From Naegleria gruberi (Eukaryota): 64,000 nucleotides of DNA. Under the pieces are notes generated by a model, which was not told the origin of the DNA, ran no database searches, and was given only the letters and a program-made list of their open reading frames with translations. This document shows positions 6,119-9,482 of this stretch, one piece after another. The stretch lies in NCBI GenBank assembly GCA_000004985.1, contig GG738885.1; one strand, 5' to 3'. The position numbers and the translations under genes were made by a program. How positions within the stretch are numbered: the first letter of the stretch is position 1; the number at the start of each line of letters is the position of its first letter.

Positions 6119-7485
6119 ATGGGTAAAAAGCAATCAAAGCAAAATTCATTGTCACTTGTTCTTCCTCCAAGCAAGTGTCCAGATCATATTCAAATTCCGA
6201 TAACTTTGGACGATAGTAGTAGATTTTCGTTTTTAGGAAATCATACGTTTTTGATTCCAACAGTACAATTGGATGATGTATTGAGAAGATTAGAATGTAC
6301 AAGCGAATGGATTCCAATAGAATTTGCTGTTAATAATTTGAATGCCACAAATCGTATTGTTGCTTTTGGACATTCAGAGAGTTTAGTTGTTATTGTTACT
6401 GGTAGGTAATAGTGTGGATTACCTTAGGTTGACTTGTTTGATTTAGATGATTTCAAAGTGTTTTGTGCTGGAAAATCAAGTGAGTTAAATAATACTGGAA
6501 ATAATGCCACATGGCGTGATTTCAAAAAGATTAAGAATACTTTTACTGAGGTTATTAAATCAGTATACTGTATTAAAGAAAGTATACTATTTACTACTGT
6601 AGATGGACAGGTATATGCCTACAGTAACTCAAAGACAGCTAAATTAGGACTTGGAGAAGCTATTGCAACAATGGAGCCTGTCAAAGTTGAAAAGGCTGAT
6701 ATTTTCGAAAAAGGATTAGCTGAGGAAATTCCACTACCAAAAATCAAATCAATTAGCTTTAGTGAAAACATTACAGCTTTTATTAGTGAAGAGGGTATGT
6801 AGATATCATTTGAAATCGTACTTAATGAGATAATTTAGGAAAGGTATTTGTTTGTGGTTATGGAAGCGGTGATAAATGGAAATTTCCAATCAAAGATGAA
6901 GATGAAACACCATTCAAACGTCTTGATACACCAGCTCTTGTAAAAAGTTTACTTAAGAATAAGGTTATTAAGCAGGTAGCTTGTGGTTTTTATCACATGC
7001 TCTTCCTTACAGATAATGGAGAATTATATGTTTGTGGTAATAATGAGTTTGGTCAACTTGGAAATGGAAAAAATGAAAATGTTGAAGGTTGTGTAAAAAG
7101 AGTCAAATTTGGAATTGGTGTTAAGCATATTGCTGCATCAAACAATTTTTCAGTTATTGTAACTGAAGATAATCAAATTTATAGATTTGGAGATTTGAGT
7201 TGGCAAGTGAAGAATAACCCAACTACTTTCAATTTACCAACTTTACTGACTGAATATACAGAAGTTGGAAATCCTCCTGTTAAATCAATTTATGCTGTAC
7301 AATCTGGAGTTGTAATTCAAACTGAGAGTGACGAAATTTACATGATTGGGCCACTTGAAGCAAAATTAGGATTTGAAGCCTTTAGAAAATTAAGTATTCT
7401 AAAAGGAGATGGAGAAATCTCATTATCCATTACTAGCAATTCAATTGTGTGCGACTATGATTCAAACAAGAAATATAAATTCTAA
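6119..7485 (+). CDS. RCC1-repeat (regulator of chromosome condensation-like) protein; 3 exons 6119-6401, 6447-6794, 6839-7485
   Basis: Three ORFs share one frame when joined by 45-nt and 44-nt introns (donors GTAGGT at 6402 and GTATGT at 6795; acceptors TTTAG at 6446 and TTTAG at 6838). Both junctions are phase 1. Exon 3 carries RCC1 repeat signatures (VACGFYHMLFLTDNGELYVCGNNEFGQLGNG; KVFVCGYGSGDKW). The N-terminus MGKKQSK fits an N-myristoylation motif. Confidence 0.7.
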
Positions 7486-7584: not shown

Positions 7585-8483
7585 TTAACATCCACATCCA
7601 CCTCCTCCACTTCCAGAATTGTTTGACTTCCCTGATGAAGGATGTGATTGAGGTTGAGATCCTAAGGTCACAGTCTTTGTTCCAGTCTCCGAAGAATTAT
7701 TCTTTCTTCTATTAAATTCACTTTCAGCATAATTACCTGCTTGATATAAACGATCCAACATATTGTCAAATGGTTCTTTTACACCAGAACCATCCTTTGC
7801 TGATGCTTCAAAATATGGAATATTAAATTTCTTTGCTAATTCTTCAGCTCTGCTACGATCAACTACTCTTCTATGAACCATATCACTCTTGTTACCTACA
7901 AGTGTAATAAGAGCATTCTCTTGAGCATTGGATTTAATTTGTTGAATCCATTTGGTTGTATTTTGGAAACTAGTTTCATTTGTCAAGTCGAAAACTACTA
8001 GAATACCATTTACACCTCTATAGTATGAAACAACAATACTATTAAAACGTTCCTATATAATGTTGTTATTGTGTTAATCATCCATTATTATTATTATCCA
8101 CGTTAGCTTCACTTATTGTTAATATTATTAAACATACTTGTCCAGCTGTTACTTGATAAGACAAAACTATTAATTTCAAGAAGAGACTTACCTGTATCCC
8201 ACAATTGCATTCTAGCAACCTTTTGATTTTGCATTAACTTGTTCTTAATTTTAAAATCAACTCCTATTGTACTTTGATATGTATCATTATATTCATTGTC
8301 TGTGTATCGTAAAATTAAACAAGTCTATTATCATCCGATTATTATTAAATTCCATTCATTAATAACAATTATTTACCTTTCCAGCGCCAGAATCACCTAT
8401 TGAAATTTAAATACTTTCAACGTTTACAAAAACATACCGACCAGCAAAATTTTAACGAACAAGTCGTAATTTTCTTCTTTCAT
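7585..8483 (-). CDS. Rab-family small GTPase; 5 exons on the minus strand: 8483-8438, 8396-8377, 8324-8192, 8145-8138 (8-nt micro-exon), 8052-7585
   Basis: The spliced product is MKEENYDLFVKILLVG|GDSGAGK|TCLILRYTDNEYNDTYQSTIGVDFKIKNK...ARMQLWDT|AGQ|ERFNSIVVSYYRGVNGILVVFDLTNETSF...GNKSDM...SAKDGSGV...GCGC. It carries the G1 P-loop, the Rab TIGVDF motif, WDTAGQE switch II, NKxD, SAK and a C-terminal CXC prenylation motif. All donors are GTATGT/GTAAAT/GTAAGT and acceptors AG, with consistent phases. Confidence 0.75.
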
Positions 8484-8900: not shown

Positions 8901-9482
8901 ATGACTAACAGAAAGGACCTCATCTTTAAACTTGCCAAAGGTTATTTCGGCAGAAGTAAAAATTGTTGGAGAACAACAAGAAATAGAGTGGAGCATGGTC
9001 TTGAACATGCCTACCGTGGAAGAAAGGAAAAGAAAAGAACAATGAGTAGTATTTGGATACAAAATGTTAAAGCTGCTACCGAACAACATGGAGTAAAATA
9101 TAGTCAATTTATGAATGGATTTGTTCTTAGTGGATGCCAAATTAATCGTAAAGTACTTGCCGAATTGGCCCAAACAGAACCTTTAACTATGCGTGCTTTA
9201 GTAGCCTTGTCTGTGCAAGCACGTAGAGAATTTGCTGTAGAATTCGGAAACAAGGATAACTCAGCTGGTGCTCTTTCGTATGAACTTGACTTCCCAGTGG
9301 AAGCTGAATTATCTTATGAAGGAGAAGATGCTGAAGTTACTCGTATAACGGAACATTTGTCCAAAGTTTTCTCTGACCTTGTTGCCAAGGAATATGAAGA
9401 AGATAAGATTTACCAACAAAAACTTGAACAAGAAATTAAGGATAAGAAGATTAAAGTCACCGGAGACCCAATTATTGTATAA
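8901..9482 (+). CDS. Mitochondrial-type ribosomal protein bL20 (MRPL20 homolog) with an acidic C-terminal extension
   Basis: The N-terminal ~115 aa (RKDLIFKLAKGYFGRSKNCWRTTRNRVEHGLEHAYRGRKEKKR...IWIQNVKAATEQHGVKYSQFMNGF...INRKVLAELA) align with bacterial or organellar L20 (KQAKGYYGARS...YRDRRQRKR.FR.LWI.RINAA....G..YS.F...L....I..DRK.LA..A). Confidence 0.7.
   Translation: MTNRKDLIFKLAKGYFGRSKNCWRTTRNRVEHGLEHAYRGRKEKKRTMSSIWIQNVKAATEQHGVKYSQFMNGFVLSGCQINRKVLAELAQTEPLTMRALVALSVQARREFAVEFGNKDNSAGALSYELDFPVEAELSYEGEDAEVTRITEHLSKVFSDLVAKEYEEDKIYQQKLEQEIKDKKIKVTGDPIIV

Follow-up and report, generated by a model that had tools for sequence, protein, structure and literature searches.

A predicted 8-nt coding exon within switch II of the Naegleria RabX3 gene

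Constitutive coding micro-exons are a known kind of feature. The alternative micro-exons of animal neurons that are regulated by SRRM3/4 are mostly frame-preserving. In land plants, the introns flanking micro-exons of ≤15 nt are removed consecutively, that on the upstream side generally being the later of the two (Yu et al. 2022, Nat Commun; PMC8831610), and a micro-exon of only 4 bp is present in human MPC1 (PMC9929638). The DNA of the RabX3 gene of the heterolobosean amoeba Naegleria gruberi almost certainly holds, as read here from its coding frame and its relatives, a constitutive coding exon of 8 nt in the part of the gene that specifies switch II.

This exon resembles the plant micro-exons in being a tiny coding exon within a conserved domain that is kept together with its gene structure, and its length is likewise not a multiple of three, as is often the case in plants, where such exons are hard to annotate (PMC8831610). 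It differs from them in belonging to an amoeba, in the very short introns that flank it (44-124 nt) and in having been annotated rather than missed; the terms Ras and Rab are absent from the main text of the plant paper. The MPC1 exon is reported (PMC9929638) to be likewise not a multiple of three, to be always included and to destroy the frame when skipped, but its setting is a vertebrate gene with long introns and exon definition, and its inclusion is reported to rely on strong exon-defining regions, nothing comparable to which is conserved in Naegleria. With the SRRM3/4 micro-exons, only small size (3-27 nt) and strong conservation are shared: those exons are alternative and tissue-specific, whereas the Naegleria exon is predicted to be obligatory and would shift the frame if skipped, and it encodes part of the catalytic core and not of the protein surface.

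The closest described objects are the RabX3 models of N. gruberi, N. fowleri and N. lovaniensis, which are the same object and from which the exon treated here does not differ. The 8-nt exon is thus already present in the public annotations of three Naegleria species and is not a discovery. A literature search combining Naegleria and microexon returned only papers with off-topic titles and none that comments on it, and a search combining micro-exon, Rab and intron position returned no Rab micro-exon paper among its top matches.

Gene structure and the source of the switch II residues

The Rab gene lies on the minus strand of the 64-kb window, which is the whole stretch of N. gruberi DNA analysed. 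Splicing by script gave five exons of 46, 20, 133, 8 and 468 nt separated by introns of 41, 52, 46 and 85 nt. All four introns are of the GT..AG type, and their donors are, in order, GTATGT, GTAAAT, GTAAGT and GTATGT. The features of the gene are the following.

8483-8438, minus strand: exon 1, 46 nt, with the ATG at 8483, encoding MKEENYDLFVKILLV plus the first base of G16; donor GTATGT from 8437
8437-8397, minus strand: intron 1, 41 nt, GTATGT..ATAG, phase 1
8396-8377, minus strand: exon 2, 20 nt, GTGATTCTGGCGCTGGAAAG, encoding the P-loop (G)DSGAGK, the G1 motif
8376-8325, minus strand: intron 2, 52 nt, GTAAAT..ATAG, phase 0
8324-8192, minus strand: exon 3, 133 nt, encoding TCLILRY...ARMQLWDT plus the first base (G) of the Ala67 codon, and including switch I
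8191-8146, minus strand: intron 3, 46 nt, GTAAGT..AACAG, phase 1 (within the Ala codon), acceptor aacAG at 8150-8146
8145-8138, minus strand: exon 4, predicted 8-nt micro-exon, CTGGACAA, encoding the last two bases of Ala67, Gly68 and Gln69 of WDTAGQE (G3/switch II)
8137-8053, minus strand: intron 4, 85 nt, GTATGT..ATATAG, phase 0 (between Gln and Glu), donor GTATGT at 8137-8132
8052-7585, minus strand: exon 5, 465 nt plus the TAA stop (468 nt), starting GAACGTTTT and encoding ERFNSIVVSYYRG to ...GGGGCGC

The five-exon coding sequence of 675 nt translates into 224 amino acids with no internal stop, the product being MKEENYDLFVKILLV/GDSGAGK/TCLILRY...MQLWDT/AGQ/ERFNSIVVSYYRG...GGGGCGC (slashes mark exon joins). 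Exon 3 ends at 8192 with CAA TTG TGG GAT ACA G and is followed by the donor GTAAGT at 8191-8186 (minus strand); the predicted joins of exons 3, 4 and 5 in the mRNA are ...TGGGATACAG/CTGGACAA/GAACGTTTT. As an internal exon of 8 nt, preceded by acAG and followed by GTATGT, exon 4 falls within the micro-exon size range (≤30 nt) and within its smallest class (≤15 nt). The motifs CTAAC and TTAAC, read by eye in intron 4, could be branch sites. The coordinates and splice-site sequences given in the earlier note proved exact when read on the minus strand and spliced by script, as did its phases for introns 3 (phase 1) and 4 (phase 0), and the 20-nt GDSGAGK exon that it reported was recovered as GTGATTCTGGCGCTGGAAAG at 8396-8377. 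Through this second small exon (8377-8396, minus strand), the G1 motif is carried on a tiny exon of its own, as the G3 motif in part is on exon 4.

The spliced product matches Pfam PF00071 (Ras) with 194.8 bits (E = 9.3e-58) over profile positions 1-160 of 162, and all the nucleotide-binding motifs are present: G1 GDSGAGKT (residues 16-23), G2 T41 within STIGVDF, G3 DTAGQ (residues 65-69, present only if the micro-exon is included), and G4 (GNKSD) and G5 (SAK) on exon 5. In Ras-like GTPases, the gamma-phosphate is contacted by the DxxG glycine, and the glutamine of switch II is catalytic. Exon 5 also encodes the C-terminus ...GGGGCGC, whose CGC is a prenylation motif of the CXC type, conserved in the N. 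fowleri, N. lovaniensis and Willaertia orthologues. The best PDB matches were Rab1B, Rab10 and Rab1A (E ~1e-51), with an alignment that runs unbroken across WDTAGQERF and, in the case of Rab1B, retains all five G motifs. Identity to Rab1, Rab8, Rab10 and Rab35 was about 50%, and the best protein matches were a 224-aa protein of Naegleria fowleri, at 88% identity, and one from Willaertia magna. RabX3 is probably a lineage-specific Rab GTPase of a Rab1/8-like kind.

The genes on either side of the Rab gene were also identified. An intronless ORF at 8901-9482 (plus strand) encodes a mitochondrial-type ribosomal protein L20 and is divergent from the Rab gene, with about 417 nt between their start codons; its counterpart on environmental contig L005 matches PF00453. 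Nup85 takes this place upstream of the Rab gene in N. fowleri and N. lovaniensis, and synteny is broken on that side. On the other side, an RCC1 / WD40_RLD-repeat gene at about 7000-7470 (plus strand) is convergent with the Rab gene, facing its 3' end, and is kept in L005, L006, N. fowleri and N. lovaniensis. Prokaryote-style calls on the environmental contigs split this gene into several ORFs, which suggests that it also has introns.

The pattern AG-CNGGNCAR-GT, which describes the 8-nt exon with its splice-site dinucleotides, was found once when both strands of the window were scanned (8136-8147, minus strand), against 0.06 expected, and coincidence is excluded for the exon on this count. 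The match falls within the 139-nt gap between exons 3 and 5, where the expectation on one strand is about 7e-5 by the present authors' own arithmetic.

The earlier note held that AGQ can come only from 8138-8145 and named an overlooked in-frame source of these residues as a possible objection. No other source of the uninterrupted motif appeared among the 21 in-frame, stop-free single-intron models, 0 of which restored DTAGQE, or among the other 34 candidates in a scan of the gap for AG..GT/GC internal exons. That scan yielded 35 candidates, 15 of which left the frame open, and an uninterrupted WDTAGQERF arose only from 8145-8138. The Ras score was 194.8 bits with the micro-exon, against 169.2 and 162.7 for the two alternative models tested. 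Exhaustive threading of the annotated protein on the DNA, in which GT/GC/AT-AG/AC introns of 10-600 nt were allowed, returned exactly one canonical solution, the five-exon model. The claim of a single source was borne out by all four lines: the single-intron models, the candidate scan, the Pfam scores and the unique threading.

Use of a different acceptor, the AG at 8153-8152, would produce a 14-nt exon (8151-8138) reading WDT-VT-AGQERF. The frame remains open in this arrangement, but two residues are placed inside the invariant DxxG, the product differs from the annotated protein, and no equivalent in-frame upstream AG was seen by eye in intron 3 of the orthologues, all of which makes this acceptor extremely improbable. 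Variants of 14 nt and 29 nt that use upstream acceptors were both rejected for inserting residues into DxxG.

Annotation and conservation within Naegleria

The 224-aa product is residue for residue the protein XP_002674321.1 (EFC41577.1, 2010; UniProt D2VNZ8), described as 'rab family small GTPase', and two neighbouring ORFs of the window correspond exactly to XP_002674323.1 and XP_002674255.1 of N. gruberi NEG-M. Since the protein is identical to XP_002674321.1 and threads in one way only, the public annotation must include the 8-nt exon, and the GenBank model can be deduced to share these exons. The Ras-superfamily gene models of Naegleria were manually inspected by Herman et al. 2021 (PMC8296547), who list XP_002674321.1 as RabX3 with no model correction flagged (supplementary file 10) and give its N. 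fowleri V212 orthologue as g3724.t1 with no corrected sequence. The N. fowleri protein XP_044563260.1 and the N. lovaniensis protein XP_044554221.1 thread onto their genomes as 46, 20, 133, 8 and 465 nt of coding sequence. The N. lovaniensis models were predicted by BRAKER1 with RNA-seq hints (PMC6125883), and this RNA-seq-guided annotation amounts to indirect transcript support for exon 4.

The orthologous loci compared were those of N. fowleri (L001 and, from a Logan assembly, L009), N. lovaniensis (L007) and environmental contigs (L003, L004/L008 and L005), the sources of the environmental contigs L003, L004/L008 and L005/L006 being ENA ERZ4903137, ERZ27315067 and ERZ929261 and JGI 3300002220. 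The same architecture was found in all of them: exon 1 of 46 nt, which also has the N. gruberi phase in N. fowleri and N. lovaniensis, the P-loop exon of 20 nt, an exon of 133 nt ending TGGGAYACNG/GTRAGT, the 8-nt exon and, last, a long exon. The earlier note had suggested comparison with orthologous Rab genes of related species, and the 8-nt exon was recovered in five further Naegleria-lineage sequences; with both flanking introns it is present in 8 loci from at least five Naegleria lineages. Intron lengths in the orthologues range from 44 to 88 nt for intron 3 and from 44 to 124 nt for intron 4, and intron 3 cannot be aligned between species. The 20-nt P-loop exon was also kept in 8/8 Naegleria-lineage loci, the differences among them all preserving (G)DSGAGK; Willaertia is without it.

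The 8-mer itself varies between lineages, being CTGGACAA in N. gruberi and L005, CTGGACAG in L003, CCGGACAG in L004 and L008, and CTGGTCAG in N. fowleri and N. lovaniensis. All versions encode (A)GQ, and the only variable positions are 2, 5 and 8, the third codon positions of Ala, Gly and Gln. Across five taxa, identity was 85% in exon 3, 83% in exon 5 and 82% in the micro-exon, and variable sites at codon positions 1/2/3 numbered 5/4/28 of 37 in exon 3 and 18/6/81 of 105 in exon 5. Introns 3 and 4 were 54% and 46% identical in the same taxa, no better than their shuffled controls (49% and 43%). As judged from these alignments, third-position change in the exons combined with introns at shuffled level is the pattern of a translated exon amid freely drifting introns, and the comparison demonstrates conservation of the predicted 8-nt exon under coding constraint across the genus Naegleria. 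L005 and the NEG-M window differ in this region by their introns alone, at 96% identity for intron 3 and 91% for intron 4, with 100% identity in exon 3, in the micro-exon and over the first 330 nt of exon 5.

These data bear on the proposal that the gene is a decaying pseudogene, in which the AGQ 8-mer between splice-like dinucleotides would be a relic or a coincidence and the mRNA would lack AGQ. Consistent with that proposal, no full-length spliced ORF of the orthologue was present among Logan or transcriptome-derived proteins. Against it, six distinct sequences, which represent at least five lineages, all retain an intact five-exon frame, most substitutions fall at third positions, the 8-mer and both splice-site dinucleotides have been kept while the introns diverged to shuffled level, and the chance expectation is that of about 7e-5 given above; decay or coincidence therefore has a vanishingly small probability. 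Searches of metagenome/metatranscriptome contigs for the spliced (cDNA-like) junction and for the gapped WDT-donor...acceptor-AGQ-donor pattern gave 0 matches each and are uninformative, the gapped scan having missed its positive control L008 (JGI 3300002220|MLSBCLC_10213921) despite a perfect match, so that its null result carries little weight.

Environmental metagenome assemblies hold Naegleria-lineage nuclear contigs in which the Rab gene was called as ORF fragments (exon 3 and/or the last exon). The warning in the earlier note that ORF-based finders miss such exons agrees with this, prokaryote-style calls on these contigs having given only the exon-3 and/or last-exon ORF. Eukaryotic annotation did not miss exon 4, its 224-aa protein being the same as that of XP_002674321.1.

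Intron positions outside Naegleria

In the sister genus, the orthologue of Willaertia magna (KAL9 record ABK040_004471, locus L002, JBEGDK010000141.1; 78% identity) also has a tiny exon in switch II, but the motif is cut differently. Introns at A[phase 1]G and S[phase 1]I delimit a 21-nt exon, GCCAAGAACGTTTTAATTCAA, encoding (G)QERFNS(I) at 3267-3287 of L002, and the orthologue shares neither of the intron positions that flank AGQ in Naegleria; the P-loop introns are also absent. Relative to Naegleria intron 3, the first Willaertia switch II intron is placed further downstream by exactly one codon (3 nt) and is in the same phase. The closest N. lovaniensis paralogue is intronless, a Willaertia paralogue has one intron, before LWDT, and Rab1 of the intron-rich outgroup Basidiobolus has one intron before WDT. 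The AGQ-flanking positions were thus found in none of these genes (Willaertia orthologue, paralogues and Basidiobolus), a sample too small to date the gains, and the 8-nt arrangement has so far been seen only in Naegleria.

Both AGQ-flanking positions follow CAG (ACAG/C and CAG/G in most species), which makes the sites proto-splice-like. The difference between Naegleria and Willaertia could be a one-codon intron slide or parallel gain at adjacent CAG/ sites. An origin of introns 3 and 4 as tandem duplicates of each other was rejected, their mutual similarity being at shuffle level in five taxa (z ≤ 1.5).

A broader proposal joins intron origin to function: introns 3 and 4 would be recent, Naegleria-specific gains at adjacent CAG/ proto-splice sites inside the best conserved motif of a GTPase, and the exon between them would act as a regulated on/off switch of RabX3 during differentiation. 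This combination is unlikely. If its recent-gain component were true, the position of the Willaertia intron one codon away would make this a clear example either of sliding introns or of introns gained in parallel.

Splicing of the 8-nt exon and its meaning

In the preferred reading, that of a constitutive exon, introns 3 (46 nt, phase 1) and 4 (85 nt, phase 0), which lie 8 nt apart within the DNA for WDTAGQE, would both be excised, and ligation of CTGGACAA to exons 3 and 5 would give Ala67-Gly68-Gln69. Inclusion of the exon in the mature mRNA is inferred from the identical annotated products of three species, the RNA-seq-guided annotation of N. lovaniensis and the coding type of conservation. 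Each flanking intron has a consensus-like donor (GTRNGT) and a YAG acceptor in every lineage, and a CTAAY- or TTAAC-like putative branch motif was seen by eye in most of them. From what is known in other organisms, each of these introns may be recognised separately by intron definition. Introns in N. gruberi have a mean length of 203 bp, with 1.7 exons per gene, and the median intron of N. lovaniensis is 80 bp (PMC6125883). An exon of 8 nt is too short for a 3' splice-site complex and a U1 snRNP to be bound at once, so introns 3 and 4 are probably removed consecutively, one after another, an order suggested by other organisms and not by Naegleria itself.

Skipping of exon 4 would shift the frame and end the protein at MQLWDTGTF-stop. 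As 8 is not a multiple of three, any skipping would be unproductive, and inclusion is predicted to be obligatory for a functional protein. No conserved intronic element was found around exon 4, introns 3 and 4 being at shuffled-level identity in five taxa, and no unusual RNA structure that might present the exon was found in four orthologues, in which fold energies were ordinary (z -1.0 to +0.8).

The same property of the exon permits a different proposal, in which a genuine exon is included under regulation, with skipping or flanking-intron retention serving as unproductive splicing that tunes RabX3, for example in amoeba-to-flagellate or cyst transitions. A length that is not a multiple of three would make skipping an on/off switch, and the introns flanking plant micro-exons are detained more often than those of other exons (PMC8831610). 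Nothing in the sequence points in this direction, however: intronic elements are not conserved, RNA structure is ordinary (z between -1.0 and +0.8) and the splice sites are consensus-like in all lineages, which leaves regulated inclusion very unlikely.

Constitutive inclusion is accordingly retained as the reading of exon 4, and its practical use is as a benchmark for gene finders, the gene offering a well-supported 8-nt exon together with a 20-nt exon. ORF-based and prokaryote-style callers miss the 8-nt exon, whereas three independent eukaryotic annotations have it correct. The locus raises no new biological question beyond the small case of intron gain or sliding between Naegleria and Willaertia, and is unsurprising to a specialist. 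For the organism, it means that a spliceosome working on introns of 44-124 nt can keep an 8-nt exon across a whole genus, even though an error would cost RabX3 its catalytic glutamine.
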